Positions 1-64,000 of a stretch of 64,000 bases of DNA are shown here, in pieces (position 1 is the first letter of the stretch; every line of letters begins with the position of its first letter). Source of the DNA: a virus. The translations under genes and the position numbers were made by a program. The DNA lies in the IMG/VR virus record IMGVR_UViG_3300040770_000151, one strand, 5' to 3'. Under the pieces are notes generated by a model, which saw only the letters and a program-made list of their open reading frames with translations, was not told the origin of the DNA and did no database searches.

Positions 1-1197
1 ATCAATTGGTATAGGTTGATTAGATAAACTAGCCAAACCTTGAACTATTAAACTATTATCAATTGGATCTACTTGCGGAGTATTGCCTATAAAAACTTTA
101 TTTTCTTTTTTAGGCTTTACCACTTTAGGTAATGGACTAGCTTTTAATTTAATGCTATCTTTCGTTGATCTATCAAGTATATCTTGATATTGTTCTAATA
201 CCTTACTAGTTTTAATCCATTCTTCTCTAATTTCAACAACTCTTTCTTTTGACTTTTCATAAGCAATTAAAGCAGGTTCAACTCCTGCACCGTTAGTACT
301 TGCAGCAGCTTTTAAGTATTCTTTTTCAAGTTTTATCTGCTCTTTTTTTGCTTTAATTAATAAAGCATTTATTTCATAAATTCTATACTGAGCATCTCCA
401 GCTTTACCTGCTACTTTTTCTGCAACTGCTTTTGCTACTAATGCTTTTGACACATCATTAATAACATCTTTTAAGTTACCATATAATATCTGTTCTTGGT
501 TTAAATTACCAAAATAAGCAGGGTATTGCTTTTGTAATTCTTGAACTGCAATTAATCGTTCTTTTTTACTTATCGTTTCATCTTGTGCAACTGATACTAA
601 AGCCTTAATAGTTGATATTTCTTCTTGTGCTGATTTATTAGCTTCTTTTGCAATATTTTTTAACGCTTCTGCACTTTCATTAAATGAACCAGTCATTCTC
701 TTATAAACATCGGCAACAGTAACACCGTTTTGGCTCATATAAGTAAAAGCAGTAGTGACCAAAGAAACAGCGAGCAATATACCTCCTGTACCCATAATAG
801 AACTAGCCATTGCTTTTAAAGCTCCACTTGTTGATCCTGTTTGTTCTTTTAAATATCCAAAACTTTCAGCAGTAGCAGTAATATTATTACCTATACCAAT
901 TATTCCGTAAGGTGCATCTTGTGCTATTCTTGAAAACTGCATTAATGCGTTACCTCCGTTTGCAACTTTTGGAGTAATTTCTTTAAAGCTATTCCCTGTA
1001 TCTTTCAAAGTAGTTCTTAAATCAGTAAGACTAGCTTTAACCGATTTAATATTGCCTTGTATTTCTTTAGTATCTAAACCTAAACTAATTCTTTCTATCT
1101 TTATCCTTGATAGTTCTTTTAAGTTAAGTTCAGCTTCTTTTATCTTTTTCTGTAAGTCTGTTACGTCCCCACCAATCTTAATTTCTAATCCTGCCAT
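1..1197 (-). CDS. Tail tape measure protein (N-terminal part, runs off window)
   Basis: Manually read from ATG at 1197: MAGLEIKIGGDVTDLQKK...FSRIAQDAPYGIIGIGNNI; follows tail chaperones; absent from ORF track because its stop is outside the window. Confidence 0.85.
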   Translation of the reverse strand, partial: MAGLEIKIGGDVTDLQKKIKEAELNLKELSRIKIERISLGLDTKEIQGNIKSVKASLTDLRTTLKDTGNSFKEITPKVANGGNALMQFSRIAQDAPYGIIGIGNNITATAESFGYLKEQTGSTSGALKAMASSIMGTGGILLAVSLVTTAFTYMSQNGVTVADVYKRMTGSFNESAEALKNIAKEANKSAQEEISTIKALVSVAQDETISKKERLIAVQELQKQYPAYFGNLNQEQILYGNLKDVINDVSKALVAKAVAEKVAGKAGDAQYRIYEINALLIKAKKEQIKLEKEYLKAAASTNGAGVEPALIAYEKSKERVVEIREEWIKTSKVLEQYQDILDRSTKDSIKLKASPLPKVVKPKKENKVFIGNTPQVDPIDNSLIVQGLASLSNQPIPID

Positions 1198-1469
1198 TAT
1201 TGCTTAGTATTTAAATATTGTTTGTATATCTCTAAGAAATTTTGTTTTTGTTCTTCACTTACACCGTGTTTTTTAGCCTTTCCACCACTCAAATCCATAA
1301 ACTTATCCATAGACTTCGGTAACTTTTTATAGTCTTGGTATGGTGCTATTAATGCGTTATAAGCTACTAATCTAAACTTCTCCCATTCTCTCACTTGCAT
1401 ACGCTTATAAGCAAAAAGGCGAATTTGGAACTCTGCATAAGTCATGTCATAAACATCTACTAACCGCAT
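1197..1469 (-). CDS. Tail assembly chaperone, frameshift (GT) C-terminal portion
   Basis: Frame is open upstream back to the A9 run at 1535-1543, in the -1 frame of the 1517-1855 ORF; directly precedes TMP. Confidence 0.7.
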   Translation of the reverse strand: MRLVDVYDMTYAEFQIRLFAYKRMQVREWEKFRLVAYNALIAPYQDYKKLPKSMDKFMDLSGGKAKKHGVSEEQKQNFLEIYKQYLNTKQ

Positions 1470-1516
1470 AATTCCAAGTTCGCCACAAGCAAAAGAGATA
1501 ACATCCCTTTTAAAAT

Positions 1517-1855
1517 CTATTTCACTACTTTCGCTTTTTTTTTATCGTTTGGATCAGTAGGCACGTCTTTAAACATAGATTCGTTAAAAGCTACCTTAAA
1601 ATCAATCCAAAACTTACCGCCTACACCGCCATTATCATCAATAAAGTCGTGTAAGTTAGCCATAGTAAAGTCAATATCTTTACCGTTTCTTTTTAATGCG
1701 TACTTGTGAGAATACAACATTAATTTAGGTATCAAAATAATATCATCTTGCGTGCCTAATTCATCAAGTTTTAAACCAGTACCTTCGATTAATTCACTTA
1801 AAAAACCGATTCCAAAATGGAAATCCATTCCTAAAATTGTTTTTAATACACTCAT
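1517..1855 (-). CDS. Tail assembly chaperone (G)
   Basis: Lies between major tail and TMP; ends in KKK encoded by an A9 slippery run. Confidence 0.75.
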   Translation of the reverse strand: MSVLKTILGMDFHFGIGFLSELIEGTGLKLDELGTQDDIILIPKLMLYSHKYALKRNGKDIDFTMANLHDFIDDNGGVGGKFWIDFKVAFNESMFKDVPTDPNDKKKAKVVK

Positions 1856-2292
1856 TATAGTAAAGGGTCTACTTTTACAACTTCTCCGCTACCTTCCATT
1901 GTAATACTAAATGTACTCAATTCATCACCAGCACCTTGCTCTAGTGGTAAATTAGTTATAATAGCAGTACCGTAATAAATCACACCTGTTACTCCTGTGT
2001 CTAATTTCCAATTAACTGGTAATTTAGCAACTAATTTAGTAAATAAGTAATCGTGCGAAGCCTTTGTAGTGTCACCTCCTACACTTGTAGTATCAATGTA
2101 TTCTCCCTCAGCTTCAAGTGTATATGTAAACATTCCTGCTGTTTTCGTAACAACTCCGGGATTACATTTTGTCATTGATTCAATAATTGAAACGTTAGGA
2201 CTAAATGAACTTGAAGTTAAACAAGCTAAAGGTCTGTAAATTGTTCCGTCATTGATGTATAGTAATCCTAATTCTCCTTTAATTGGTCCCAT
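1855..2292 (-). CDS. Major tail (tube) protein
   Basis: 145 aa, CLTSSSF...TKCNPG...G.AIITNL...STFSITMEGSG pattern; synteny. Confidence 0.8.
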   Translation of the reverse strand: MGPIKGELGLLYINDGTIYRPLACLTSSSFSPNVSIIESMTKCNPGVVTKTAGMFTYTLEAEGEYIDTTSVGGDTTKASHDYLFTKLVAKLPVNWKLDTGVTGVIYYGTAIITNLPLEQGAGDELSTFSITMEGSGEVVKVDPLL

Positions 2293-2305
2293 ATTGTATT
2301 GTATT

Positions 2306-2737
2306 TTATATTAGTGTTAAGTTAAGTCTCATTAATGATCTAAAGATAATTTCAGTATCAGTTATCGTTTCTAAATTAGCTTCAAAAGTGATATTTTGCG
2401 TAAGGTTTTCAAATCCTTGTACTGTTATTTTAGGGTTTAATAAATCCAACATCGCTTGCTCAATATCATTTAAAAGCAACCTTGAACCGCTATTTCCTGC
2501 ACTTGATGTTTTAGTAAATATTTCAATTAATAGCGATGTTTCCCATCTATACGCGCATTTAGTAGCCTTATCAACTTCTTTTGTTTGCGATGATAAAAGT
2601 ACATATTCTTTTAAAGTACTATTTCCAGAAAGTCTACTATCATACGAAAATATCTGTTTCCCACTCACAACAATCCCATTAATAAGGTCGTGAACTGATT
2701 TTCTAATAAATTTATCTGGATTGATATTTATTCCCAT
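2306..2737 (-). CDS. Tail terminator/completion protein
   Basis: Position between gp10-like gene and tail tube; size. Confidence 0.6.
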   Translation of the reverse strand: MGININPDKFIRKSVHDLINGIVVSGKQIFSYDSRLSGNSTLKEYVLLSSQTKEVDKATKCAYRWETSLLIEIFTKTSSAGNSGSRLLLNDIEQAMLDLLNPKITVQGFENLTQNITFEANLETITDTEIIFRSLMRLNLTLI

Positions 2738-2750
2738 AAAACAAAGATAA

Positions 2751-3266
2751 TCAAATTTTCTTATTATATGATTTTAATAGTTTAGTCAAATTGTCTAAAT
2801 ATTTCTTTTTACCTTGTATGTAAGCAGGATATAAAAACGGTCTCGGTTCAATTCCAGCTCCTAATATTTTAGCAAATATTGGATAGGCTGCTTTTTCATC
2901 AATTCCTTTAGATCTACACCACACTTTTATTGCTTCCAAACCTTCTTTAAACGTTCCTATTTTTTGTCCTTGAAACTCTTTAGCCATGTTAGCAAACTCA
3001 GCAGGAACTTGTACTTTTGTTCCTGTTCCAAATTCCATATAAGCACCGTAATACTCATTAACTCGAACACTATATAAATCAGCTTTTTCTTTTTTAACGG
3101 ATATACTTTGAGCAAGTTTACTAAAGTTTTTAGGTGCTAACTTTTTAGCATTTCCAGCAATATCATTAGCAGCGTCTTCGGTTTCCGCATTAATCAATTC
3201 AATAGAATCTTTGCCAAACTTACGCAATTCTTTTATAGTTTCGTTTATACCTTTAACTGATGCCAT
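2751..3266 (-). CDS. HK97 gp10-like tail component
   Basis: YGAYMEFGTG and PRPFLYPA motifs. Confidence 0.8.
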   Translation of the reverse strand: MASVKGINETIKELRKFGKDSIELINAETEDAANDIAGNAKKLAPKNFSKLAQSISVKKEKADLYSVRVNEYYGAYMEFGTGTKVQVPAEFANMAKEFQGQKIGTFKEGLEAIKVWCRSKGIDEKAAYPIFAKILGAGIEPRPFLYPAYIQGKKKYLDNLTKLLKSYNKKI

Positions 3267-3579
3267 TTGCGCTTATTGTTACAAATCTAAATAGTTCATC
3301 ATCATAGCGTAAATCATTAACTACATACTTTGCATTTCGATACACAATACTTAAATTAGAAATATCCATATCTAAATTAATGTTTGCTCTAATTTTAAAA
3401 GTATAGTTGTTTTTAATTTGTGAGTTACCTATTGAATTATCTTTAAATGCGCTGTTTTGCTTTACATCAGCCCAATACGCACCAATCAAAACATCCTGAA
3501 CGGTATATCCACCAAAACCATCTGAAACATCAGTAGTTTTAAATATCTGTATTTTACGTGTGTATTGTCTGCTAATCAT
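3253..3579 (-). CDS. Head closure / head-tail adaptor
   Basis: 108 aa, DGFGG...WA...FKIR pattern; synteny. Confidence 0.7.
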   Translation of the reverse strand: MISRQYTRKIQIFKTTDVSDGFGGYTVQDVLIGAYWADVKQNSAFKDNSIGNSQIKNNYTFKIRANINLDMDISNLSIVYRNAKYVVNDLRYDDELFRFVTISANGIS

Positions 3580-4025
3580 TACATAAATCTTTTATAAATA
3601 TCCAAAACTTCGTGAACTGCCATAGGTATTAAAGTTGTATTTACTTGCTTTTCACTTTCGTAATACCAAACCTTCAACATTTGCAAAGCAGCTTGTATCA
3701 AATCATCAGGAACCGTATCAATCGCATAACCTACATTTAAAACTACTTCTTTATCGTTTGGAAATATCTTAAACAAAGAATAATCTAAATTAAAAGGAGT
3801 AGGAGTTGTTACAATTGAGTTAATAGGAAAATCATATACTTTTACCTGACACACACCTCTATACGTTTTATCTTGCTCAAACATTATATGATTAGTTCTC
3901 TTTTCAATAAAACGTAAAGATGCATTTATCATTGATATAATTTCATCGTCATCGTCAGAATTACCTAAGTCGATCCTTAGATAATTCTTTGCACGATCAA
4001 GTGTTATGACATCTAAATAACTCAT
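3579..4025 (-). CDS. Head-tail connector (gp6/gp15-like)
   Basis: ITLDRAKNYLRID...VPDDLIQAALQMLKVWY. Confidence 0.8.
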   Translation of the reverse strand: MSYLDVITLDRAKNYLRIDLGNSDDDDEIISMINASLRFIEKRTNHIMFEQDKTYRGVCQVKVYDFPINSIVTTPTPFNLDYSLFKIFPNDKEVVLNVGYAIDTVPDDLIQAALQMLKVWYYESEKQVNTTLIPMAVHEVLDIYKRFM

Positions 4026-4027
4026 AT

Positions 4028-4354
4028 TTAATAAGATATAACCGCAACACTTACGGATGTAACACCACTATAAGCTACGTTTACTAGTCCTGTAGTAGCA
4101 TTAAAACGACCTGTATCAAGTAATCCAATAACTCTTTCTGATCCTGCTGGTATACTTACGGTTATATCCACATCTGTGCCATAGTTAGATAATTGCTTAC
4201 TATCAATCGTTACTGTAATAGCAGCTACTCCACCGTTTTTTACGTGTAAGTATGTTCTACCATTATTTAAAAAAGTATCACCTCCTACGCTAGCAACGTT
4301 GAAAACTGGAGTAATTCCTGCTAAAGCAATTTTTTGTACTGTAAATTGTGCCAT
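4028..4354 (-). CDS. Putative small virion protein
   Basis: Beta-rich 108 aa between MCP and connector. Confidence 0.45.
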   Translation of the reverse strand: MAQFTVQKIALAGITPVFNVASVGGDTFLNNGRTYLHVKNGGVAAITVTIDSKQLSNYGTDVDITVSIPAGSERVIGLLDTGRFNATTGLVNVAYSGVTSVSVAVISY

Positions 4355-4356
4355 TA

Positions 4357-4515
4357 TTATTTATTTTTATTAGTTACTTTTTCTTTTACCTCAATAAGAT
4401 AATCAAACATTGCTTCAAATTCATCTTCTTTTGTAAGTTCGATTGTGTCCCCTACATTATAATGTTTTTGTTCTGACAACTTAAAAAACTCTTGTACTAC
4501 GCTATATTTTTTCAT
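4357..4515 (-). CDS. Small hypothetical head-associated protein (52 aa)
   Basis: Manual ORF MKKYSVVQEFFKL...YNVGDTIELT... Confidence 0.55.
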   Translation of the reverse strand: MKKYSVVQEFFKLSEQKHYNVGDTIELTKEDEFEAMFDYLIEVKEKVTNKNK

Positions 4516-4569
4516 AGTTAATTTATTTATTTATTCAAAGATACAAAAAAAACCATTCGTTAAAATGGT

Positions 4570-4836
4570 TTATTTAAATTCTGTTTTATGTATTGTAATA
4601 TTATTATAAACTATTGGAAACTTTAACCTTGCTAATGTATGATAGGGTAATTTCTCAAACTCACAACACTTTTTTAAATTTCCGTATGCTTCTACTCGTG
4701 ATCCTTGAATGAATACTATTATATTTTTTCGGTTCATTTTAGGTTTTTTATCAAATCTTTTATTACTTTCTTCAACCCATTTACTAGGCGTTTTACTAAT
4801 TAGTGCTTCTAATTTATCTTTCATATCTTGATTCAT
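4570..4836 (-). CDS. Hypothetical protein, possible small DNA-binding protein (moron)
   Basis: ORF track; lies in the insert between MCP and connector genes. Confidence 0.5.
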   Translation of the reverse strand: MNQDMKDKLEALISKTPSKWVEESNKRFDKKPKMNRKNIIVFIQGSRVEAYGNLKKCCEFEKLPYHTLARLKFPIVYNNITIHKTEFK

Positions 4837-5165
4837 ATGATTTCATTTTAAAAAAGGTAGTTTATGCCAGTCTACTATTTACTTCGAGTTTAATTCACGG
4901 TTTCCGCACCCGTAACACTGCTTTTACACTCTACCTTTGATTAATTAAAAAAAAGCCTTAAAACTTGCTATCAGTTCTATTTTAAGGCTATAACTACTTC
5001 TATTTTTAACGTGTTGAAATTATTAAATTACCTGACTTATTTACTTCTAAATTAATATCAAGTTCCTCTTTTACTTTTCTTATACAGTTTTCTAAGTTAT
5101 AAACTGTTGCAGAGCCTTTAGTCTTAATTTCTTCGACTATTAGCTCTGCTGCTCTTTTTCTTATA

Positions 5166-5372
5166 TTAAGCATTACAAAACGCTTTTGCTAGTTTGTTAG
5201 CGTCGTACTCTCTTGCAAACATTGTTCTAGTTATAAACTTTTTATCTTCATTTTGAACAGAGAAAAAAGTTCTTTTAGTTCCTTCTTTTACCACTTTTAC
5301 AACTGTTGCTTTTTTGTTTGTAGTTGGGTTGTTATAAGTTGTTTTTGAGTTTAATACTATGAAAGTTGACAT
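5166..5372 (-). CDS. Hypothetical protein (moron)
   Basis: Directly behind its own TATCTTTG promoter (5409-5416). Confidence 0.6.
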   Translation of the reverse strand: MSTFIVLNSKTTYNNPTTNKKATVVKVVKEGTKRTFFSVQNEDKKFITRTMFAREYDANKLAKAFCNA

Positions 5373-5478
5373 ATCTTTTAGTTTTAGTGTTTTGCCTTAT
5401 TAGCTCTACAAAGATACAACCAATATCCGTATAAACAATACATTTTATAAAACTTTAACATTTTATTTTTTAAGCATA

Positions 5479-5508
5479 AAAAAAACCGTTACAATACGTA
5501 ACGGTTTT
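5479..5508 (-). terminator. Intrinsic terminator after MCP
   Basis: aaaaaaaaccgttac-aatac-gtaacggtttt hairpin. Confidence 0.75.
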
Positions 5509-5532
5509 AATCCCCTTTCTATTAAGTTAGTA

Positions 5533-6660
5533 CTATACAGCTAAAAAGTTTCCGTAAACTAATGCCAACGGTTGTTCTACTGCTAAAGCTACTTGCGCTT
5601 CAATTCTAGCAGTAATATTATTTTTCACAAAGTTAGTACCCTCTTGCTCTGAAAATTCAAGAGAAAGACCCTCAGTGATAATTTTATTAACTCTTGACCA
5701 ATCACCAACATAATATCTGTTAGCAGCAACCCACGTAGCCACATAAATTGGAATACCGTTAATTCTCAATTGCCCACCTTCAAATGTGACAACCTGTGGC
5801 AATCCGTAACCAGCACCTGTTGATTTTTCGATAGTTAAGATTGACCAATAATCAGAAGGACGAATCACAATTCCATTAACTGAATAGTTGTTGTTTTGCA
5901 ATTTTGCAATCTCATTGATTAACATTTCGATCTTATTCTTACCTGTGATAATCTCAGTTGATGCAGTAGCAGCAGCAGCTAATGTGGTATTAAATGCAGC
6001 ATTCTCAGCAATCGCATAATCTCTACGTAGCGCCTTAGGAATGAATGATGTTAAGAATGGTAAATTGTTAGCCATTTTTTTAGAATAACGTGTAAGTCCT
6101 GCGATAAAATCAGTGTTCACATCTACCATTGTAAAGTCGTAATCTCTTTGTGATTTAGTAGCACCCTCAACCTGTGCACCGATTGAACCTTCGCCAACTC
6201 CCTCTACAGGAAATGTATAAGTACCTCCTGAAATAGTAACAGAACCAACCAAATCAGAAACGTTTACCGCTTGACCTGGAATCATTACAACATCAAAGTT
6301 ATAATCTTTTGGTTGAGCTCCTGTTAAATTTACTGGTAATGTCATATCACCAACTACTTTTACTTGTACTGCAGCACCTTTACGAACTTGTCCAATTTGA
6401 GCAAAGTTCTCCGAAATTCCTTTTACTAAAGTATCTTCTCCTTTTTTCAATTCTAATGATTTCTCTTGTAGTTTTAAATCTAATTTATCAGCGTGTTCTT
6501 GTGTAGCTTTTAAATCGTTTTTTAATCCTTCGATAGTTAAAGTTTGCTCGTTTTTTGCAGATTCCAATAATGCTTTAAAGTCAATCGCTTGCTCACTTGT
6601 TTTAGTTTCTACTTGTGTTTTAATCGCTTCTAAAGCGTTTTTAATTTCTAATGCTTCCAT
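5533..6660 (-). CDS. Major capsid protein, HK97 family
   Basis: Coiled-coil delta-domain N-terminus; VGEG...K; RIEAQVALAVEQPLALVYG C-terminus. Confidence 0.9.
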   Translation of the reverse strand: MEALEIKNALEAIKTQVETKTSEQAIDFKALLESAKNEQTLTIEGLKNDLKATQEHADKLDLKLQEKSLELKKGEDTLVKGISENFAQIGQVRKGAAVQVKVVGDMTLPVNLTGAQPKDYNFDVVMIPGQAVNVSDLVGSVTISGGTYTFPVEGVGEGSIGAQVEGATKSQRDYDFTMVDVNTDFIAGLTRYSKKMANNLPFLTSFIPKALRRDYAIAENAAFNTTLAAAATASTEIITGKNKIEMLINEIAKLQNNNYSVNGIVIRPSDYWSILTIEKSTGAGYGLPQVVTFEGGQLRINGIPIYVATWVAANRYYVGDWSRVNKIITEGLSLEFSEQEGTNFVKNNITARIEAQVALAVEQPLALVYGNFLAV

Positions 6661-6670
6661 TGTGTTTGTT

Positions 6671-7315
6671 TTAAAATTTAAATGATTTTAACGTGTCTAA
6701 AATAATCGGCTTATCATCTAAAGTGATAGTTTCTATCGGCTCATTTGTAAGTGATTTTAATAATGTTTCAATTTGTCTTAGTCTTTCGTCCGAGTAATCC
6801 AAATTATATGATTTTTCAATAAGTTCTAGTATTCCATAAGTAGATTTAATACTTTTTATTCCTTGTACCGTACTTAGTTCGTTAGCACCCCAACTAGACA
6901 AAAAAGAATATTCCATTAACTTATATTCGTTAATAATACTTTTGTTCTTAGAGTCTCTTTGTATTACTTGGTAACCTATGCTTAATTCAGCATTTAAGTT
7001 GTTTTCGTGCATCAATTTTACATCTTGAAACATATCCCTACCTAAATCCTTTTGCATATTGAATTGACTTGTTGTCAATAATCCGTATGTATCTTTAGTA
7101 TCAATCATTAAAGGCACTCCTATCATCATTGTAGGATTATGGTCTTTTAATACACGAATACGTTTGAAGTTTTCATTTACCGTTTTTTCAAACGAACCAA
7201 ATGCCGAAATATCTCCATCACTATCCTTAAAATTATAAGCATTTGCATAAGCAGTCACTACTCCTTTCTTTTCGTCTAATTCCTTTAAATCGTACGATAA
7301 TTGTTTAAAATCCAT
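6671..7315 (-). CDS. HK97 prohead protease
   Basis: YANAYNFKDSDGD, HN, LSIGY, EYSFL motifs. Confidence 0.9.
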   Translation of the reverse strand: MDFKQLSYDLKELDEKKGVVTAYANAYNFKDSDGDISAFGSFEKTVNENFKRIRVLKDHNPTMMIGVPLMIDTKDTYGLLTTSQFNMQKDLGRDMFQDVKLMHENNLNAELSIGYQVIQRDSKNKSIINEYKLMEYSFLSSWGANELSTVQGIKSIKSTYGILELIEKSYNLDYSDERLRQIETLLKSLTNEPIETITLDDKPIILDTLKSFKF

Positions 7316-7511
7316 ATTTCGTTTGTTTTAGATAATTATACAAAAGTTTAGTTTCGTTTTCTAAAGATTCTATTTTTAGTTCAAATTCTTTTTGTTTTAA
7401 TTCAATTTCTTTTTCTAGATATTCTAAATTTAACTCTAGTATTTCTATTGTATTTTTTTGCTCTGCAATCCAACTTTGCACACTTGTTTCGTATTGTTTT
7501 TGAATATCCAT
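7305..7511 (-). CDS. Hypothetical coiled-coil protein
   Basis: ORF track; E/K/L heptads. Confidence 0.55.
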   Translation of the reverse strand: MDIQKQYETSVQSWIAEQKNTIEILELNLEYLEKEIELKQKEFELKIESLENETKLLYNYLKQTKYGF

Positions 7512-7516
7512 ATATC

Positions 7517-8350: not shown

Positions 8351-8353
8351 AAT

Positions 8354-8539: not shown

Positions 8540-8542
8540 AAC

Positions 8543-11862: not shown

Positions 11863-11868
11863 ATTATA

Positions 11869-55649: not shown

Positions 55650-55752
55650 AACGCTAACATTTTAGCTATTTTAATAATAAATTGTTCTATTTTGTTTCTC
55701 ATAATTTTTTATTTAAACCGTCCTAAATTTTAGGACGGTTGGTTTTTTGTTT

Positions 55753-56085
55753 TTAAAAAGGAATATCAGATTCTTCTTCTTCTGAAACAGGTGTGGCATT
55801 AAATACCGTTTCTTTTTGATCCCATATAGTAGTAACTCCTTCGCCTATAAAAATAGTCTCTGCTTTCGCTTCTCTTTCTTCTTTAGTTTGTATTACGCTT
55901 GCAAAATGTGATTTCTGTAATTTATAACCGCTACCCTCGTGTATTATTTTAGGCTCTTTTACTTCTACAAGTTCAAATCTGACTTCTTGGACTTTCATTT
56001 TAATCCCTTCTTTTGAATCGAACTCTCTTTTTGTTACTAGATTACGTAATTTAGTAGCGTCTAATGTGATTGTTATTTTTGACAT
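55753..56085 (-). CDS. Probable SSB
   Basis: Acidic EESDIPF tail. Confidence 0.6.
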   Translation of the reverse strand: MSKITITLDATKLRNLVTKREFDSKEGIKMKVQEVRFELVEVKEPKIIHEGSGYKLQKSHFASVIQTKEEREAKAETIFIGEGVTTIWDQKETVFNATPVSEEEESDIPF

Positions 56086-56087
56086 AT

Positions 56088-56738
56088 TTAAAATTTTAAT
56101 TTGTTTAATTCAATTGTTATTTGTTCTTTTAATAATTCCCCTTCTTTTTTAGCTATTTCAACCCACTCATTGACAGTTTTTATAATTGGTTTGGCTTTTG
56201 TTCCTAAATTAATTAAGCTTTCTCTAGTAAGCTCTTTTACAAAAATAGGTTTATAAATGTTTTCGGGTCTGTAGCTACAAAAATAATGTTTTTGTAATTT
56301 AGGGTTTATCGTAAAATAGTGTAAACATTGGTGTATATTGTCGTTTGGAATATCATTTGCTCGAATAGTAGATAAATGTTTTTTTTTTGCAAAACATTTT
56401 ATTTCTGCTGATATTGTTTCATCTTCACTTATTCCATCTGGAGAAATGCCTAAGTATTCGTTTTCTTCGCATTGCAACCAACCAACCTCTAAAAGTTCAA
56501 TGCCTAAATATGCGCTTAATGCTTTTCTTGCTTCTGGCTCTAATTCTGAACCTCTTACCATATCATAAGATTGATAATTTTCTTGTAAGTCAAATTCTTC
56601 GCATAGTTCGCTTAAAACATCTTCTAATAAAGTATCTGATTTTACAAATAAACCTTTTGATAAAGTACCACCTATTTTCCCATATCTTACTTCGTGCCAT
56701 TCCTCAGAATGTTGTTCAATATCATTTCTAATTATCAT
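56088..56738 (-). CDS. YqaJ/lambda-exonuclease family nuclease
   Basis: QHSEEW..VR.GKIG, RG.ELEP.AR, GISPDG, EIKC. Confidence 0.88.
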   Translation of the reverse strand: MIIRNDIEQHSEEWHEVRYGKIGGTLSKGLFVKSDTLLEDVLSELCEEFDLQENYQSYDMVRGSELEPEARKALSAYLGIELLEVGWLQCEENEYLGISPDGISEDETISAEIKCFAKKKHLSTIRANDIPNDNIHQCLHYFTINPKLQKHYFCSYRPENIYKPIFVKELTRESLINLGTKAKPIIKTVNEWVEIAKKEGELLKEQITIELNKLKF

Positions 56739-57268
56739 TTTAAAGTAGTTTTAAGTTTTTCTTTTAAAGCAATTACAGTTGGTAAATGCTGTTCGGAAGG
56801 AGTTAATATTTTCCAAGCTATTTGTAAAGCTTCTAAAGAAGTACACATGTTTAAAGCAGAAATTGCAGTAACATCTGAAATAACTTTTTTAACAACAGGC
56901 TTAACTTTTATACCTCCTGTTACTTTACCCATCATTTTAACGCTAGGATCAAAAAACAAATCTATTTTAATACCTTTCCATTTAGGTAATTTTCTACTTT
57001 CTGCTGAACTGCAATTTAATTCTTGCTTTACAATTTCATTTATTATTTTTCTATTTCCACTATTAGCAACCATATCTTTAACAGGCTCTATAAATGAAAT
57101 AAAATAACCATCTGTTTTATTTCCAGAAACATCTACGCCTCTATCATAATAGGCTTCCTTAATTGTTAAAATACAATTTCCTTTTTCCTCCACAATTGCA
57201 TCTACATCAATCCCCGCTAAATGCGTTGACTTTCTGTATTTCATACTATCAATATCTAACTCTCTCAT
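56735..57268 (-). CDS. Hypothetical protein, possible ssDNA-annealing partner
   Basis: Adjacent to exonuclease; same slot as the RecT-like gene in unit A. Confidence 0.4.
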   Translation of the reverse strand: MRELDIDSMKYRKSTHLAGIDVDAIVEEKGNCILTIKEAYYDRGVDVSGNKTDGYFISFIEPVKDMVANSGNRKIINEIVKQELNCSSAESRKLPKWKGIKIDLFFDPSVKMMGKVTGGIKVKPVVKKVISDVTAISALNMCTSLEALQIAWKILTPSEQHLPTVIALKEKLKTTLK

Positions 57269-57274
57269 AATTTT

Positions 57275-57523
57275 CTATTTTAATTTTTCTATTAATCTTC
57301 TAACTTTTCCAGCTAAACCACTATCAACTGATTCTAAACAATAAAGTATATGGTTTGCTTCTTCTATAATATTTCTTTGCATTTCGTTAAATACTTCAAC
57401 ATAACCGTTGTCGTATGCTTCTGTTAAATTTATAATAGTTTCTACTATTTCAGCATCTACTTCAATCTCGTTTGCAGGATGCATACTGTTGTTCGTTCCT
57501 AAATAATTGTCGTCGTAATTCAT
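57275..57523 (-). CDS. First leftward early gene (paralog 25107)
   Basis: N-terminal similarity. Confidence 0.7.
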   Translation of the reverse strand: MNYDDNYLGTNNSMHPANEIEVDAEIVETIINLTEAYDNGYVEVFNEMQRNIIEEANHILYCLESVDSGLAGKVRRLIEKLK

Positions 57524-57658: not shown

Positions 57659-57952
57659 ATGAACAAAGCATTTACAAAATCAAAAGAAATAGTATTAGAT
57701 GAAAATTACAAAATTATTCCTGATACTGACAATGGTGTTGTTTTAGTTTTTAAAACAAGTAGAGTTAATAAAAAAGATGAAACAGTACCGCACGAGGAAT
57801 TGTTTTATTACCCTAGAATTTCACAAGCACTAAAGCATTATGCAGATAAAACAATTAATAATTCTGAGAGTTTAGATGATTGTATTTATAAATCAGAATC
57901 AGTTTATAATTTGATAAAAAGATTAGACCAACAATTTAAACAATTTAATTAG
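57659..57952 (+). CDS. First rightward early gene (paralog 25496)
   Basis: Similarity. Confidence 0.75.
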   Translation: MNKAFTKSKEIVLDENYKIIPDTDNGVVLVFKTSRVNKKDETVPHEELFYYPRISQALKHYADKTINNSESLDDCIYKSESVYNLIKRLDQQFKQFN

Positions 57953-57957
57953 TAAAT

Positions 57958-58137
57958 ATGAAAACCAAGAAACACAAAATAGTAAATGGTAAATGGCAAA
58001 TTAAAAACATTTACGACGCTTTACAAGCTAGTTTATTTGATATTTATATAAATACCCATCGTGAATTAGAAACGCCTGCATTAAGGTCTAAAATAACGAA
58101 AGAATACAACTATAAATTTAATTTTACAAACAGATGA
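57958..58137 (+). CDS. Hypothetical protein (59 aa; paralog 25898)
   Basis: Manual ORF MKTKKHKIVNGKWQIKNIYDALQAS. Confidence 0.65.
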   Translation: MKTKKHKIVNGKWQIKNIYDALQASLFDIYINTHRELETPALRSKITKEYNYKFNFTNR

Positions 58138-58421
58138 AAAATTTAAAAATAAAAGAAATTAATTTTTTAAAAGGAGAAGAAAGAGGTTTGACAAAAAATT
58201 ACCCTTCAAACGGTTTTTTTATTTCAAGGTTCGAAAACGGAACTAGCGACTTTATTCTTGTTGACAAGAATGCTGAGCGTGTTATTTTTCTTTGTCCAGA
58301 AGAAATATTTAATTCAATTTCTGAATACGAAGAAGAAACAATAATTTCAGAACCTAATACCGATACCTATAAAGGTGATTTTATTCTTGAATTTGCTAGA
58401 ATTTTATTAAACAGAAAATAA
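58134..58421 (+). CDS. Hypothetical protein
   Basis: Occupies the slot of 26095 in unit A but is unrelated. Confidence 0.6.
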   Translation: MKNLKIKEINFLKGEERGLTKNYPSNGFFISRFENGTSDFILVDKNAERVIFLCPEEIFNSISEYEEETIISEPNTDTYKGDFILEFARILLNRK

Positions 58422-58435
58422 CTAAAAATAAAACA

Positions 58436-58684
58436 ATGATAACAGAACAACTAATACCACTTTTGAAGAATAAAAGAGAAAATTTAAAAGGAACAACACT
58501 ACCAACGGTTAAACTTTGGGAATCTGGTACACGTTCGCCATTATTAAAAAACGTTGACCAAATATGTAAAGCAAACGATTTAAAAGTTTTGGTTTATGAT
58601 GGTAACTTAGATACTTTGATAAATTTTGCGCATAAAGTCGCTAAAGAACAAGGTATGAAAATGATTCTTAATTTTGAGGCTTAA
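58436..58684 (+). CDS. XRE-like HTH regulator (paralog 26481)
   Basis: Near-identical; stop codon lies in TAAC of site B1. Confidence 0.7.
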   Translation: MITEQLIPLLKNKRENLKGTTLPTVKLWESGTRSPLLKNVDQICKANDLKVLVYDGNLDTLINFAHKVAKEQGMKMILNFEA

Positions 58685-58786
58685 CGTCCTGCAGCTACAC
58701 GATGCTAGTCTAAGTGCTTAGTAGATTCGGCTGCTGAATTATGTTATGTGTTATAAGTAGTACGGGTAATTAAAAAAAATGTAATT

Positions 58787-58963
58787 ATGAAAGAAAAATT
58801 TAAAAGTTATTTAGAAAGATTAAAGTCTTTTAATAAAGCGGAAAATTATAATTATACAGATGACGATTTTGATAAGTATAAAGATTATATTAGAGATTGT
58901 TGGCTAAGTAATTTAAGCGTACATAAATGCCTTGAATTTATGTATTTTGAAACGGAATCGTAG
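58787..58963 (+). CDS. Cassette ORF B1 (58 aa)
   Basis: Manual ORF MKEKFKSYLERLK...FMYFETES. Confidence 0.65.
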   Translation: MKEKFKSYLERLKSFNKAENYNYTDDDFDKYKDYIRDCWLSNLSVHKCLEFMYFETES

Positions 58964-59137
58964 TATTACTTATAATGGATCAGTGATATGAGAGGATTTT
59001 CGGAACGGAAATCACGAATATTTACTGCCAAAACTAATATTACCCAGTACAAAACAATAAATCAATAATCACAAATGCCGAAAATCGCTCATATCACTTG
59101 TTACTGGCTGTGCTTTTTCGGCTCAAAAAATTAAAAA

Positions 59138-59560
59138 ATGGATATTAAAACTATCAAAATTAAAAAAGTGGATACTGAAAAATTAATTGAATTTTTAGCA
59201 ATCCCATTGAATGAGAATGAAAAATTATCAATAGATGTTTTTGGAGTTTTTGAAAACAAATTCGGAATCGATACTGATTGTTGTTTCTGGGAAATAAATC
59301 AAGCGTTCTTTAATGAAAAAATACAAGATGTAATTGATATTGAATGTAGAATTAAGAAGTATAACGATAAAGGAGGTTATTCAATTAGAATGGATAAAGC
59401 TGATTTTGTAAAAACAATTTCTTTAGAAGATTATTTGAAATTATCTGAAGAAGTTATGCTTGTAGATTTTATAAGATTGGATTATAATCCGAGAATTACA
59501 GGCAATCAAAAATTATTGATGAAACATATTAGACAAAGTTATGCCGTTCCAACCGCATAG
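59138..59560 (+). CDS. Cassette ORF B2
   Basis: ORF track; between sites B2 and B3. Confidence 0.7.
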   Translation: MDIKTIKIKKVDTEKLIEFLAIPLNENEKLSIDVFGVFENKFGIDTDCCFWEINQAFFNEKIQDVIDIECRIKKYNDKGGYSIRMDKADFVKTISLEDYLKLSEEVMLVDFIRLDYNPRITGNQKLLMKHIRQSYAVPTA

Positions 59561-59686
59561 CCAGTAACGCCTACCGCTACAGCACGCCGCCTAAGTGGTT
59601 GCGTAGGTTCGGCGGTGGTTTGTAACGGTTGTTATGCCTTCGCCTTTTTATTTACAACATATTATTAACTAATAAATTATAAAAAA

Positions 59687-60163
59687 ATGAACAATTATTT
59701 ATTTAAAAAAATAGAACAAGCTCACGGAGCTTATTTTGAAAACTTAACTTTTATTGCAAATGAAGTTTGTCGTGAAAGACAATCAGAATCGTTTGAAGAA
59801 TTTACTGAATTAGAACCTGCTGAAATAGCAAAAGTTTTAGGATGGAATGACAAAAAAGAAACCCTATCTCTAATTGAAAGCGAAATAAAAGACAAAAGTT
59901 TATCTGGATTATTATTGAGATACGATATGACTGGATTTTTAGCACAATGTATGATGCCTGAATGTTCAAATTTTAGATTTGAAGAAGGAAAAGAAAGACC
60001 TTGCTCGTGGAGTGTTCACGGTGGAATTTGCAGAATATTTTGGATTTATGCTGAATCAATAGGCGAGCTAGTTGAAAAGTTAGAGCAAAAAGCAGAGAAT
60101 TTATTTTTAGAAGCCGTAAATAAATCAAGGTCAGTTGTAGATTCCAACCAAGCTGACGCATAA
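59687..60163 (+). CDS. Cassette ORF B3
   Basis: Stop overlaps TAAC of B4. Confidence 0.7.
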   Translation: MNNYLFKKIEQAHGAYFENLTFIANEVCRERQSESFEEFTELEPAEIAKVLGWNDKKETLSLIESEIKDKSLSGLLLRYDMTGFLAQCMMPECSNFRFEEGKERPCSWSVHGGICRIFWIYAESIGELVEKLEQKAENLFLEAVNKSRSVVDSNQADA

Positions 60164-60315
60164 CGGTCGAGTGCTTGGCGAAGAAGCGGAAAAGTACATG
60201 CTATTTTTCGATTAAGCCTAAATTTTAAAGACACAAAATATATTATAAATTAATAACCGAACCCGCTTTTTTGCCAAACACTTGTTATGGTTAGTGCGGT
60301 TCATAAAAACAAAAA

Positions 60316-60795
60316 GTGATGAAACAATTAAATCAAATTATCAAAACATTAAGAGAAGAAACGGCTTTTTCATTTACCGAAAAGAAATTAGAAATACTTA
60401 GAAGTCAAAAAGATTATTCAGAAATGATGAAACAATGTTATAGCGGGAAAGATAATACTACTATTGAAGAATGTGAAGAAAACGCTATTAGAACGTTTGT
60501 TTCTGAATATCAAAAAATGTGTGAGATTTATTCAGGATGGTTGAAAAATGGAAAGGTTTTTATTTTAGATAAAAGAGACCATTTTATTCTTGCACTATAC
60601 AAAGTTGATGATATTGCACATAAGGCAATTGCACAATACAATCCATTGAATGTAGATTGCATTGAGCAATCAATTTCAAATAAACATTTTTTCGAGCAAT
60701 TAAATATCCGTTTTGATATTTCTACAAATGAAGAATTATTAATTAAAGAATGTGATTTGTTAATCAAAAATTCAATTGTTTACCCAGCACCGTAG
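60316..60795 (+). CDS. Cassette ORF B4
   Basis: Between sites B4 and B5. Confidence 0.7.
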   Translation: MMKQLNQIIKTLREETAFSFTEKKLEILRSQKDYSEMMKQCYSGKDNTTIEECEENAIRTFVSEYQKMCEIYSGWLKNGKVFILDKRDHFILALYKVDDIAHKAIAQYNPLNVDCIEQSISNKHFFEQLNIRFDISTNEELLIKECDLLIKNSIVYPAP

Positions 60796-61066
60796 CATTA
60801 ACCATAACGGAATGTGGCTTTATTTCAGTTGCAAAATTCGTAACCGATAATTTTCGGCTAATAAAAAACGACTTTCGAAAGATAATTTTGATTTTATCAG
60901 ATATTTTGCAATTGAATAAAACCACTGTTATCGCTAGTTGCAAGTAGTTCAGAAAAATACTTTAGAAAATAATTTAAATATTTTATAAAAACACTTGTTT
61001 ATTATAAAATAAGTTATATATTTGCTAAAGAAATAACAACGAAGTTATTTTGTAATTTTTATTATT

Positions 61067-61312
61067 ATGAATAATGTTTATACAAATAGTCGTCCAACTG
61101 AAAGTTTTTGCAAACTAAAAGCTACTTGTGGATTACACGGTAATTTAGACATTCACGGAATGGAATGGAGCGAAAGAGTTATTTTAAAAGTAGTTGCTTT
61201 TGATAGAACTAACGGAGTTTTAATCGTTGAAAATGATAACGGATTAAAATGGAATACAGATTTGAAGAAAATGCAATTCTGTTTAGAGAATGGCAATTCA
61301 GTTCCAAACTAA
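61067..61312 (+). CDS. Cassette B5 ORF 1
   Basis: Behind internal TATATTTG promoter 61017-61024. Confidence 0.65.
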   Translation: MNNVYTNSRPTESFCKLKATCGLHGNLDIHGMEWSERVILKVVAFDRTNGVLIVENDNGLKWNTDLKKMQFCLENGNSVPN

Positions 61313-61514
61313 AATGCCATTCATCCTAAAAAATAAAGAAACCGAGCAATATAGATTGTTCGGTTCTTTACCTATCCTTTGCCGAAGCATTGGATTTGAC
61401 GAAAAAAAAGAGAAAAATTTGCTTTACACTTTCTCTCAAAAAAAAGAAATAAAGTTTGAAAATAACGAGTTTCTAATTGTAAAAGTCTTTTTAGAACGTG
61501 GTGGCAGCAATTAG
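61290..61514 (+). CDS. Cassette B5 ORF 2, possible small DNA-binding protein
   Basis: Overlaps ORF 1; FGSLPILC motif resembles the C-terminus of 4570-4836. Confidence 0.55.
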   Translation: MAIQFQTKMPFILKNKETEQYRLFGSLPILCRSIGFDEKKEKNLLYTFSQKKEIKFENNEFLIVKVFLERGGSN

Positions 61515-61590
61515 CGATAACGTTTTGCGGCTTTGTCGTCGTTGTGGCGTTTGAACACAAATATTAACAAAGAAAACAAATCATTAAATT

Positions 61591-61788
61591 ATGCCAAATA
61601 CTTCCAAAAATGCCCAAGTGCCACAATGCGACAAAACCGCTGTTAGCAGTAGTTATTCGTTAGATGAAGTTAGAAATATTGTTCTTGAAATGCGTAATGA
61701 AGCGATATCTGGTTTAAGAGGTGAGAGGCGTTGGGACATGCAAAAACGACTTGGTAAAATAAGAGATAAATGGAAGTTGGGGTATTAA
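61591..61788 (+). CDS. Cassette ORF B6 (starts inside site B6)
   Basis: GTT crossover at 61642 is codon 18 (Val). Confidence 0.6.
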   Translation: MPNTSKNAQVPQCDKTAVSSSYSLDEVRNIVLEMRNEAISGLRGERRWDMQKRLGKIRDKWKLGY

Positions 61789-61902
61789 TTACTGCTAACG
61801 TTCCCGCGATAGGGGCTGTTTGCCTATGCGGAAACCTACTTTCGGCAAATAGACCTTATCGTGTGTTATCAATATTATGAATTATTAAAACAAAAATAAA
61901 TT

Positions 61903-62163
61903 ATGGAAACTAAAAAACCAAACAATCCAAGTGCATTTCCTGTAATAGCTACAGAACAATCGTTTTTTAATCAAAGCCCATTAATGCCTGAATCAGGAAT
62001 GACTTTAAGAGACCATTTTGCTGGATTAGCAATGCAGGGATTAATGTCAATGGAAGAAAAAGGAGAGTATCAAACAATTGATGATGCTTGGAGGAAAATA
62101 GCTGAATACTCGTATCAAATGGCTAACGCTATGCTAAAAGTTCGTGAAGAAACGGAATCGTAA
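61903..62163 (+). CDS. Cassette ORF B7, widespread phage AFP...GMTLRD family
   Basis: SAFP...GMTLRDHFAGLAMQG...YQMANAMLK.RE. Confidence 0.75.
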   Translation: METKKPNNPSAFPVIATEQSFFNQSPLMPESGMTLRDHFAGLAMQGLMSMEEKGEYQTIDDAWRKIAEYSYQMANAMLKVREETES

Positions 62164-62333
62164 TATTATTGATAACGGTTCGCTAGTAGGCGATGGTTAG
62201 GGTCAGGATTCTAATTGTGGCGAATTCTCCTTAATTAAACCAAGTACAAAAAACTAATTAAATTAATCACGATGCCCAACTATTGCTTACTAGCTGTTAG
62301 CATTTGTGCGGGTAACTAAAACTAAATATTATT

Positions 62334-62546
62334 ATGAAAGCAATAGGAAATTATTTGCCGTGGGAATCTGGATATTATGAAAGTTCAGGTTCATATAAAA
62401 AAAGCAATGGAGAATTAATATTTTGTTATACTTATTATTTCTCTGGAAAAGCGGAACAAATTGAAACAAGACACCCTATAGATTGTGGTAAATTAAATAA
62501 AGAGATTGAAGAAAAATGTAATTCAAAAACGAAAATACAGCATTGA
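62334..62546 (+). CDS. Cassette ORF B8
   Basis: Between B8 and truncated B9. Confidence 0.65.
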   Translation: MKAIGNYLPWESGYYESSGSYKKSNGELIFCYTYYFSGKAEQIETRHPIDCGKLNKEIEEKCNSKTKIQH

Positions 62547-62595
62547 TGCTAACTCATCCATACAACTAACTAACCTATTCAATACCCTGTAAACA

Positions 62596-62880
62596 ATGAC
62601 TTCAAACCTTGACAAAAATTATTTTATCACTTATTCAAACTATTTTAAAATAGATAATAAGACGTTTGCATTTAGAAAAAAAGTTTTGTTTGACATCACT
62701 AATTTACCTATCAAACTAGAGTTAAAAGACAATAATAATTGTTTAGGTTATTGGATAAATCGAAAATGGTATAGTTTAAGTAAATTAGAGCCATTAGTTA
62801 AAAAAGAGAATATTAAAAAAGATGTTAGTATATTGCAATGGAATGAACAAATACATTTAGATTATGTGTTTAATATCTAA
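62596..62880 (+). CDS. Hypothetical protein
   Basis: ORF track. Confidence 0.6.
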   Translation: MTSNLDKNYFITYSNYFKIDNKTFAFRKKVLFDITNLPIKLELKDNNNCLGYWINRKWYSLSKLEPLVKKENIKKDVSILQWNEQIHLDYVFNI

Positions 62881-63052
62881 TTAAGGCGAATTCGCCACAA
62901 TTAAAAAAATAAAATTATGGGAAATATAATAAGATTCATATTTAGAACCAACTATAGATATAACAAAATAGATCAGTTTTTTATATTTTTGGGATTTTTT
63001 GGAATTATACAATGGTTGTTGATATTAATATTTTTAATTTTTAAATAAAAAT

Positions 63053-63083
63053 AAAAAAACGCTCTTAATTGGAGCGTTTTTTT
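63053..63083. terminator. Bidirectional terminator
   Basis: aaaaaaacgctc-ttaattg-gagcgttttttt. Confidence 0.8.
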
Positions 63084-63235
63084 ATTTTTATACCTAAGTC
63101 ATTCTTTACTTTATTTATTCCTTTAATCCATCTTAAAATACGTCCTACAATTGTTTTTGGTGGTTTATCGCTTATTAGTCCTGTGGCTACATCTATTATT
63201 ATGTTTGGGTCTATTTGTTCTTGATCTTGTTTCAT
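63065..63235 (-). CDS. Small basic amphipathic lysis-associated protein (56 aa; paralog 28303)
   Basis: Manual ORF MKQDQEQIDPNIIIDVATGLISDKPPKTIVGRILRWIK. Confidence 0.6.
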   Translation of the reverse strand: MKQDQEQIDPNIIIDVATGLISDKPPKTIVGRILRWIKGINKVKNDLGIKIKKRSN

Positions 63236-63672
63236 AGTTGTTTTCTAAAATATTGTTCTACTTCTGATTTTCTGCGACCTATTAACTCTTTGTTTTTAGT
63301 CCACATCATAAACGCACTTTTAATAGTAGGGTCGTTTGGATTTGCATTTACGCGTCTTAAAACAGTACTTTTAGCAAATCCATTTATTCCGATGTTATAA
63401 GCTAACGATACAAGGGCATTGAATTGGTTTTGCGTAACTTCTTTAGTTAACAGTGCATTTACTTGCTTTGCGAAATTATCGCTTGTTACACTTCCTAACT
63501 TGTAAGCTTCACGCATTGTAAGTACTTTATCTTTCATTGTTACTTTTTTACCGTCAAGATAATAAGTATTTCCCATTGCAATAGTTGGTATTCCTTGCGT
63601 GTCTAAATAAGGCTTTAATTTCAATCCTTCTCTTTCGTGTAGAGCGTTATATCCGTTATCGTCTAGTCTCAT
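63232..63672 (-). CDS. Endolysin, GH24 lysozyme
   Basis: EGLKLKPYLDTQGIPTIAMG (E-x8-D-x5-T), QNQFNALVS, GRRKSE. Confidence 0.9.
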   Translation of the reverse strand: MRLDDNGYNALHEREGLKLKPYLDTQGIPTIAMGNTYYLDGKKVTMKDKVLTMREAYKLGSVTSDNFAKQVNALLTKEVTQNQFNALVSLAYNIGINGFAKSTVLRRVNANPNDPTIKSAFMMWTKNKELIGRRKSEVEQYFRKQL

Positions 63673-63679
63673 AATTTAT

Positions 63680-63997
63680 TTATAATTTTGTTGATTCACT
63701 TATTACCATAAACATTAAACTGATTAAAGCGGTTATTAATACGCCTGCAATAAATTTACCTGCTCTCATATGTTCTTTTAATAGTATATTTTCATCTTCA
63801 ATAGTTTCAACTTTTGAATTTAGTTTATCAAGTAATTGAATTAATCCTTTATTGCCATTTATATTACTACCTGCTAGGGCAATTTTAACTTCCTGCATAA
63901 AGTCTTTTACTTCGGTCATATCTTGCTTGTATATTCTAAAATGATGCTCTAAACGCTCAACGTTTAACTTGATTTCTGAAATATCCCTTTGATCCAT
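63680..63997 (-). CDS. Lysis-module protein (paralog 28939)
   Basis: Near-identical to 28939. Confidence 0.7.
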   Translation of the reverse strand: MDQRDISEIKLNVERLEHHFRIYKQDMTEVKDFMQEVKIALAGSNINGNKGLIQLLDKLNSKVETIEDENILLKEHMRAGKFIAGVLITALISLMFMVISESTKL

Positions 63998-64000
63998 TTG

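Follow-up and report, generated by a model that had tools for sequence, protein, structure and literature searches.

The viral DNA considered here, a stretch of 64,000 nucleotides (nt) from the IMG/VR record IMGVR_UViG_3300040770_000151 called the window below, consists of two complete, related and differently built Flavobacterium phage genomes of about 35 kb each, arranged head to tail and termed unit A and unit B. The window is AT-rich (G+C 26-36%), its sequence is free of Ns, and its minus strand carries nearly all genes. Both units follow a common layout which, read on the minus strand from high to low coordinates, runs from a divergent control region through early, replication and recombination genes and a short conserved block to the packaging and virion genes and a lysis cassette, towards which a plus-strand module of small open reading frames (ORFs) converges in each unit. 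Replication genes, a terminase, a portal, a capsid and an endolysin of its own were recognised in A as well as in B by PHROGs and Pfam.

Exact copies of 19 of 20 window proteins were found in a protein collection, where the longest record for all 19 measures 70,198 nt; 17 of the 19, from both units and both joints, are found on two contigs. The 70,198-nt record is exactly two units long; exact words of 46-51 nt taken from the window found no copy of it among the viral and metagenome contigs searched. Anchored on a shared protein of 166 amino acids (aa), it measures 35,098 nt from the B copy round to the A copy and 35,100 nt the other way, and anchored on a shared 105-aa protein it divides into units of 35,457 nt (A) and 34,741 nt (B), sizes near those of Flavobacterium phage 11b and Cellulophaga phage phi46:1 (see below). 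The two-unit length and the truncation of the tape-measure gene at the edge of the window together agree with a circular or circularly permuted record, and the 6.2 kb lying outside the window are about the size needed for the distal tail genes of A, judged from 11b.

Two units with a shared gene set

Comparison of the window with itself by blastn returned 13 direct, collinear segments of 72-89% nucleotide identity at offsets of 34.7-35.1 kb, declining from 35,100 nt (12874 to 47974) to 34,741 nt (28937 to 63678), and a single short inverted match, which is a terminator hairpin common to both units. The divergent control regions lie at 25361-25496 and 57523-57659, and the 0.5 kb surrounding them (25296-25801 versus 57458-57964) is 84% identical. 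A census of exact repeats gave 34 runs of at least 20 nt, the longest being 41, 41, 41, 36, 35, 32 and 32 nt. The first two 41-nt runs fall in the gene pair 17073/53766 and the third in the pair 28939/63680, where the 105-aa gene of lysis cassette 1 shares runs of 36 and 41 nt with positions 63686 and 63743; the unit borders have no exact repeats other than these two runs, which lie inside a coding gene. The 122 ORFs scanned with PHROGs and the 103 scanned with Pfam yielded no integrase, recombinase or host gene, and neither an excisionase nor an att-like long direct repeat was found in the 64 kb.

An all-versus-all blastp of 129 ORF translations recovered every one of the 12 listed gene pairs, alike in order and strand and at 36-95% aa identity, with E-values from 1e-11 to 1e-104 that rule out chance. 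Named by their start positions in A and B, these are 12876/47976 (82%), 13373/48637 (55%), 14045/49854 (76%), 17073/53766 (95%), 21395/54184 (58%), 22121/55069 (36%), 25107/57275 (78%, limited to the first 27 aa), 25496/57659 (84%), 25898/57958 (78%), 26481/58436 (94%), 28303/63065 (86%) and 28939/63680 (92%). A further match, 13756/49032, extends over 33 aa, and one non-collinear pair on opposite strands, 26095/52123, is 33% identical. Synonymous divergence (dS) of the shared pairs ranges from 0.29 to 1.37, with one pair saturated, and the ratio of non-synonymous to synonymous divergence (dN/dS) is 0.05-0.23 in eight of the ten pairs for which it could be computed and about 0.6 in the other two. 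Judged by these values, the shared genes are old orthologues under purifying selection and not the products of a recent duplication.

The virion modules, by contrast, are unrelated. The two large terminases, which match at only 26% over 144 aa (E 1.6e-4), come from different Pfam families (Terminase_3 in A, Terminase_6N/6C in B), and apart from them no A/B pair of virion proteins matches in the all-versus-all blastp. The replication sets differ as well: A has a primase/helicase, a helicase-methyltransferase, an SbcD-like exonuclease and a RecT-like protein, and B has a DnaD-like replisome organiser, a YqaJ exonuclease, a dUTPase and a methyltransferase. The first-pass annotation, made from the sequence alone, had described a tandem of two phage genomes that share one chassis and have unrelated virion modules, with gene pairs that recur in the same order and strand at clear divergence, no integrase or host gene between the units, and exact shared runs of about 40 nt in 17073/53766; on each of these points the present analysis bears it out.

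One member of the shared set, the 166-aa protein encoded at 12876-13376 and 47976-48476, sits just upstream of both packaging modules and begins with a signal-peptide-like N-terminus (MKKLILLLLFP...). It belongs to no Pfam or PHROG family, no relative was found in 185,579 species genomes or among phage isolates, and a search of viral contigs matched one locus; it may be a secreted or outer-membrane moron protein. A search for relatives of an 82-aa protein found none.

Gene content of the units and their relatives

The packaging and virion module of unit A (1..12237, minus strand) is of siphovirus type according to PHROGs and Pfam. It comprises the N-terminal part of a tape measure, which runs off the window (1-1197), a major tail protein (1855-2292), connectors (2306-4025), an HK97-type capsid (5533-6660; Pfam Phage_capsid), a protease (6671-7315), a MuF-like protein (7517-8278), an SPP1-type portal (8543-9919; Phage_portal) and an HNH endonuclease (9935-10411) that adjoins the large terminase (10522-11712; Terminase_3). 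A search with the tape-measure protein returned only distant or tiny metagenome matches. The early, replication and recombination module (12352..25361, minus strand), delimited by PHROGs and the blastp pairs, encodes a RusA-like resolvase (14248), the primase/helicase (14577-16397), the helicase-methyltransferase (17549-19732), the SbcD-like exonuclease (20184-21398), MazG (21666), an endonuclease (23690) and the RecT-like protein (24424), with the shared genes at 12876, 13373, 14045, 17073, 21395, 22121 and 25107 scattered among them.

The closest described relative of this unit is Flavobacterium phage 11b (NC_006356.2), whose complete genome of 36,012 bp has the size of about one unit. Sixteen packaging and virion proteins of unit A are collinear with those of 11b and 50-82% identical, among them the large terminase (82%), the protease (79%), the capsid (70%), the portal (57%) and the N-terminal part of the tape measure (53%). 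Both come from an icy source, the 11b record naming an "Arctic Flavobacterium" and the sequencing run used below for read depth (X1) being labelled an ice metagenome. The two differ in their early regions, where the RusA-like protein (78%) and two small proteins of unit A match 11b and the others do not; in their lysis genes, which are unrelated; and in that 11b is annotated on one strand and lacks the divergent plus-strand module. 11b also matches four early proteins of unit B at 32-51%. Unit A is thus, by protein comparison, an 11b-like siphovirus, of about 35.5 kb if the 70,198-nt record is circular.

The helicase-methyltransferase fusion has 78% nucleotide identity to sequences in 93 Flavobacterium phage isolate records, and these matches indicate that the host is Flavobacterium or close kin. 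At 70-94% aa identity the same protein is found on 79 IMG/VR contigs, the longest of 55,768 nt, on which the other genes are mostly different; its range, far wider than that of its neighbours, suggests a promiscuous module.

In unit B the virion and packaging module (29566..47328, minus strand; PHROGs, Pfam) contains a beta-helix tailspike (30385-32871), a portal (33333-34487), a capsid (35730-36752), an XkdF-type protease (36780-37712), two large unannotated virion proteins (38342-42423) and a T4-type large terminase (45867-47069; Pfam Terminase_6N/6C). Neither a tail tube nor a tape measure was recognised in the unit by PHROGs or Pfam, and for the two large virion proteins sequence searches of the PDB and two Atlas look-ups led to viral hypotheticals only. 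The early module (47576..57523, minus strand; PHROGs, blastp, Pfam) encodes YopX (47576), the methyltransferase (50056), the DnaD-like replisome organiser (53054), the dUTPase (54669) and the YqaJ exonuclease (56088), and the second copies of the shared genes are scattered within it. A (TTC)n microsatellite of about 30 nt lies at 53369-53400, within the replisome-organiser gene.

The capsid of unit B is 61% identical over its full length to gp03 of Cellulophaga phage phi46:1 (NC_021800.1), a proteomically confirmed structural protein. The phi46:1 genome (34,844 bp, circular) also has the size of one unit, and the gene order past the terminase is similar by inspection, with small genes followed by proteins of about 370, 610 and 850 aa. 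The differences are that a single window protein matches phi46:1 at E<=1e-4, and that phi46:1 has integrase-family genes, of which unit B has none. Unit B is a second Flavobacterium phage with a largely undescribed virion module. Members at 90% identity or more of the clusters of its terminase, its portal, the 117-aa protein and the 105-aa protein are found on Logan contigs, three to four contigs each, of which the longest measures 29,604 nt; the equal length of 29,604 nt suggests one B-like genome that stands alone in other runs.

Lysis cassette 1 (28303..29569, minus strand; Pfam, PHROGs) consists of a small conserved gene (28303-28464), an M15-peptidase endolysin (28471-28935; Pfam Peptidase_M15_4, PHROG endolysin), the conserved 105-aa protein with a C-terminal membrane helix (28939-29256) and a 117-aa ORF (29216-29569). 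Lysis cassette 2 (63065..64000, minus strand; Pfam, blastp) has an endolysin of the lysozyme family instead (63232-63672; Pfam Phage_lysozyme), unrelated to that of cassette 1. Comparison of 28303-29256 with 63065-63997 hence shows an endolysin swapped within a kept frame, flanked by the small gene (86% aa identity) and the 105-aa gene (92%). Beyond its close cluster, a search for relatives of the 105-aa protein gave only ones of about 40% identity. The protein in the cluster at 90% identity or more differs from copy 2 of the window at two residues and from copy 1 at six, which fits cassette 2 being the own cassette of unit B. On a 5.9-kb contig, a 105-aa protein like copy 2 appears to occur together with a small protein of the copy 1 cluster, which suggests that the lysis cassette itself is reshuffled in nature; other contigs seem to carry yet more recombinant arrangements. 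Cassette 2 adjoins the tail genes of unit A if the 70,198-nt record is circular.

Plus-strand module 1 (25496..28098) begins with the conserved genes at 25496, 25898 and 26481, followed by small ORFs and a phenylalanine transfer RNA gene (tRNA-Phe), and plus-strand module 2 (57659..62880) with their counterparts at 57659, 57958 and 58436, followed by about 11 small unannotated ORFs. Between the small ORFs lie imperfect hairpin elements of 80-140 nt with ATAAC...GTTAT ends, which start with ...ATAACGTT..GCAG and end with ..CTGTTAT. Four are located in module 1 (26990-27102, 27284-27420, 27660-27800 and 28015-28098), three of which fold far better than shuffled sequences (z -3.4 to -5.0; the fourth, z -0.05), and related elements lie in module 2 near 58747, 58949, 59565-59682, 61862 and 62149-62300. 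In shape they are similar to integron attC sites, with the difference that the window is without an integron integrase. Rfam has no family for them, its sole match being the tRNA-Phe (GAA) at 27103-27176 in plus-strand module 1, between the units and absent from the first-pass annotation, which is flanked by two hairpin elements and placed as if it were a cassette. A 74-nt element at 28021-28095 is found exactly in three otherwise unrelated IMG/VR contigs, and the contig L003 carries an array of four related copies. A variant contig of depth 25.7 in X1, in which 24 other letters connect 27003 with 28055, is without the tRNA and two ORF cassettes.

Independent contigs carry the genes of both units in other combinations. 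The virion module of unit B recurs on an independent IMG/VR contig of 24.3 kb (L006) at 82-86% nucleotide identity, with the terminase at 95% aa identity, and the early region of that contig mixes A-like and B-like genes; early genes of A and B are mixed on L078 too. The helicase-methyltransferase is linked to an A-type virion on L079 and to a distant B-type virion on L103, and on L003 an M15 endolysin (88%) is joined to a B-like 87-aa gene (78%) and the end of a tailspike. Such different combinations of the same genes in independent genomes mark a modular mosaic family with one gene pool, and about 13 early, regulatory and lysis-accessory genes are common to A and B because both draw on this recombining pool. 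The dS values, which are uneven between segments, match the expectation for mosaics exchanged at different times. On a short IMG/VR contig (L004, 5,760 nt) lie homologues of the 166-aa protein (63%) and of the A portal (88%), and the 2.7 kb between these two genes, the expected place of the terminase, match neither window terminase and constitute another module swap.

Read depth and the nature of the join

Read depth was taken from run X1, which comes from the only study found to contain the stretch and carries 0.96 of the sampled words; no contig of X2, another run of the same sample, could be placed on it. The source consists of Logan contigs with one depth figure per contig, and the contigs were placed on 12000-31999, an interval that covers the A-side copy of every shared exact run of at least 32 nt. 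Logan contigs (k=31) break at every shared 31-mer, with ends for instance at 17178, 22488 and 25737, and short contigs inflate the depth sums per bin. In unit A, the seven listed contigs that match 12078-25737 letter for letter have depths of 58.9-74.6, and in unit B a contig identical to 30484-31999 has a depth of 24.1 and a four-letter variant at 30331-30377 one of 19.9. A contig with T at 17136 and 17148 accounts for 16.6 of a depth of 91.2, the A copy for 74.6; these are the letters of unit B at the homologous positions, so the early region of B is also of low depth. Bins up to 28.0 kb have depths of 59-98, and the one with the multi-copy 74-nt element has 158; after the element the depth is 90 (28675-29341) and then falls to 41, 31, 25 and 24 (to 31342). 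The step thus lies at about 29.3-29.9 kb, at the upstream end of cassette 1, adjoining the 105-aa gene with its 36- and 41-nt runs. With depths that differ 3-4 fold, A and B are not equimolar.

Two further readings of these data were rejected. A 1.4-kb repeat identical in A and B might have been read from the bin depth of 90 at 28675-29341, taken as the sum of A and B, yet bins of unit A at 18003-19336 also reach 96-98, probably through the inflation by short contigs, and copy 2 has 89% identity, which likewise opposes such a long repeat at 28.7-29.3 kb. A joint from 22854 to 29825 in X1 has only 23 letters on one of its sides and falls within AT-rich sequence beside a terminator hairpin, and is read as a strain variant of unit A rather than an inter-unit link. 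At 22830-22854, X1 contigs at unit A depth (65.3) depart from the window at the terminator hairpin, which suggests a strain variant of unit A with another gene replacing 22863-23231; a 69% homologue of the gene at 22863-23231, or of the one replacing it, lies on an unrelated IMG/VR contig (L001).

The observations comprise the homology map, the fact that both units are complete, their unequal depth and the place where it drops, and they are best accounted for, with a probability of roughly 0.6, by two separate mosaic phages that were concatenated during assembly, rather than by one molecule; the tandem itself is probably not a biological feature. In this scheme A and B would be distinct populations in the sample, with depths of about 65 and 20. 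Unit A would begin at 63.7 kb, take in the unseen 6.2 kb, end at 29.3 kb and carry cassette 1, and unit B would extend from 29.3 to 63.7 kb and carry cassette 2. The point of contact between the two circles would be the 105-aa gene or its 117-aa neighbour, within the conserved lysis-cassette region, and the 70,198-nt record would most likely be the assembler's double lap around both. That the join exists only in silico, and where exactly the crossing lies, we infer; the unit sizes, the length of the record, the unequal depth, the step at a conserved gene, the apparent occurrence of a B-like genome alone elsewhere, the B virion module on the independent contig L006, the age of the shared genes and the fact that none of the 79 helicase-methyltransferase contigs exceeds 56 kb all support it. 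Among the three explanations offered in the first-pass annotation, an assembly chimera, expected to show coverage that differs between the units, as is seen here, together with no reads that span them, is the best supported. A genome of about 70 kb with two particle types, as the only form, is contradicted by the 3-4 fold depth difference, and a heterodimer or recombinant concatemer of co-infecting relatives, present in part of the population, is less probable than the chimera. The further suggestion that the lysis module at 63-64 kb closes on unit A fits the 70,198-nt record, if that is circular.

Contigs of this kind have precedents. For IMG/VR contigs of more than twice the expected length with a repeated genome, the account of over-length contigs given with CheckV states that they probably arose as artefacts when metagenomes were assembled (PMC8116208). 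The present record resembles the cases in that account in being about twice as long as its closest complete relative and in stemming from public metagenome assemblies, and differs from them in that they repeat the same genome, with a k-mer frequency above 1 (PMC8116208), whereas here different phages share 13 segments at 72-89%. A concatemer of one genome is rejected on the same grounds, namely the 34 exact runs of at least 20 nt with a maximum of 41 nt and the identity of the shared segments. Since the A and B copies share only such segments and runs of at most 41 nt, a k-mer check would not flag the record. If the tandem is an artefact, it serves as a warning for viral databases, in which a circular-looking contig that combines two divergent relatives at double length would pass k-mer-based concatemer checks and inflate estimates of genome size and gene content.

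Several points weigh against concatenation during assembly. Inside the window no exact run common to A and B exceeds 41 nt, a length below that of typical reads and below the final k of common assemblers, and most assemblers break at such branches instead of joining; an in silico crossing therefore needs either an error of the assembler or a longer twin in the unseen 6.2 kb, which could for example copy 29257-29570 immediately upstream of 63997. The depths fit equally well a real tandem at about 20-24x together with free unit A at about 40x. If the second contig with the 17 of 19 proteins is independent and spans both units, the tandem is reproducible, although a duplicate record or a pair of separate contigs may lie behind it instead. 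L003, on which a B-like 87-aa gene is linked to an M15 endolysin, fits a natural join of a B virion to cassette 1. Finally, with one depth per contig and inflated bin sums, the step is placed only within about 28.7-30.0 kb, and X1, although probably the source, is perhaps not the exact data set that was assembled, four letters at 30331-30377 differing from the window.

The strongest competitor, which we regard as possible and rather doubtful, is a real cointegrate or hybrid concatemer, that is, an A-B heterodimer of co-infecting phages sampled as cellular DNA beside free A. It could arise by homologous recombination in the conserved lysis-cassette region or by site-specific recombination at the attC-like hairpins alongside; ATAAC...GTTAT hairpins do lie beside both joints, and the mosaics L006, L078 and L003 attest to a recombinogenic population. 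The record is moreover contiguous and without Ns, none of the ORFs near the joints looks truncated on ORF maps, on which this rests as no dedicated test was made, no exact shared run above 41 nt would have confused the assembler, and most exact proteins of both units are on two contigs. Yet the 3-4 fold difference in depth means that at most a third of the A copies would be linked to B, with all B copies in dimers; a dimer of about 70 kb compares with 36.0 kb for 11b and 34.8 kb for phi46:1 and would presumably be unpackageable in either capsid; B-like genomes seem to occur alone in other runs; and no integron-type or other recombinase was found in the window with PHROGs or Pfam. Slightly less probable still is the specific version in which the 70.2-kb record is a real cointegrate that persists in cells as one replicon beside free A, a captured intermediate of module exchange. 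If true, a real cointegrate would offer a rare direct view of such exchange.

The other explanations fare far worse. That two contigs of one viral bin were pasted together by binning or scaffolding would agree with a record length of two units, and is nonetheless very improbable: Ns are absent, no ORF at the joints looks cut on ORF maps (a specific test for cut genes was not part of this), and the joints lie at homologous positions, where a lysis cassette meets a plus-strand module, unlike arbitrary pasting. We give as little credence to a single functional phage genome, about 70 kb long, with genes for two complete kinds of particle. One contig does contain two units without host DNA, but depth is unequal over its halves, all essential functions are duplicated, the shared genes are long-separated orthologues (dS 0.3-1.4), the relatives are complete at 36.0 and 34.8 kb, and the 79 related contigs are all shorter than 56 kb. 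Least credible of all are two prophages integrated in tandem in a Flavobacterium chromosome, for which one could cite the tRNA gene between the units and A-type terminases (45-61%) inside large Bacteroidota genome contigs, presumably prophages, and against which stand the lack of an integrase, excisionase, att-like long direct repeat or host gene in the 64 kb, a record of only 70,198 nt whose unseen 6.2 kb are needed for the A tail genes, the flanking of the tRNA by cassette-type hairpin elements, a shared 166-aa gene without a relative in 185,579 species genomes, and the 35 genome loci, where 11 of the 13 matching window proteins are from the packaging and virion module of A (1-12237), the other two being single-locus matches to the B early proteins 51245 and 53054, and none of the roughly 13 shared genes matches.

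Modular mosaicism and the lambdoid phages

Independently of how the join arose, one chassis with two virion modules is real biology, and in kind it is classical modular mosaicism. Among Flavobacterium phages of cold environments, which make up a recombining pool, a common framework of early, regulatory and lysis genes is paired either with an 11b-type virion or with an unrelated one, and endolysins are exchanged between conserved flanks, a biology that is real and familiar in kind.

The familiar case is that of the lambdoid phages of lambda and P22 type, in which phages of one host share a framework and carry unrelated virion modules. The present phages differ from them in that no repressor, integrase or other lambdoid gene family is recognisable in the window, the host lies in the Bacteroidota, and the shared genes are without assigned function. 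The likeness lies in the architecture, with a collinear framework of early-regulatory and lysis genes, a divergent control region, unrelated virion modules and reassortment on independent contigs, and by this analogy A and B are related to each other much as lambdoid phages are.

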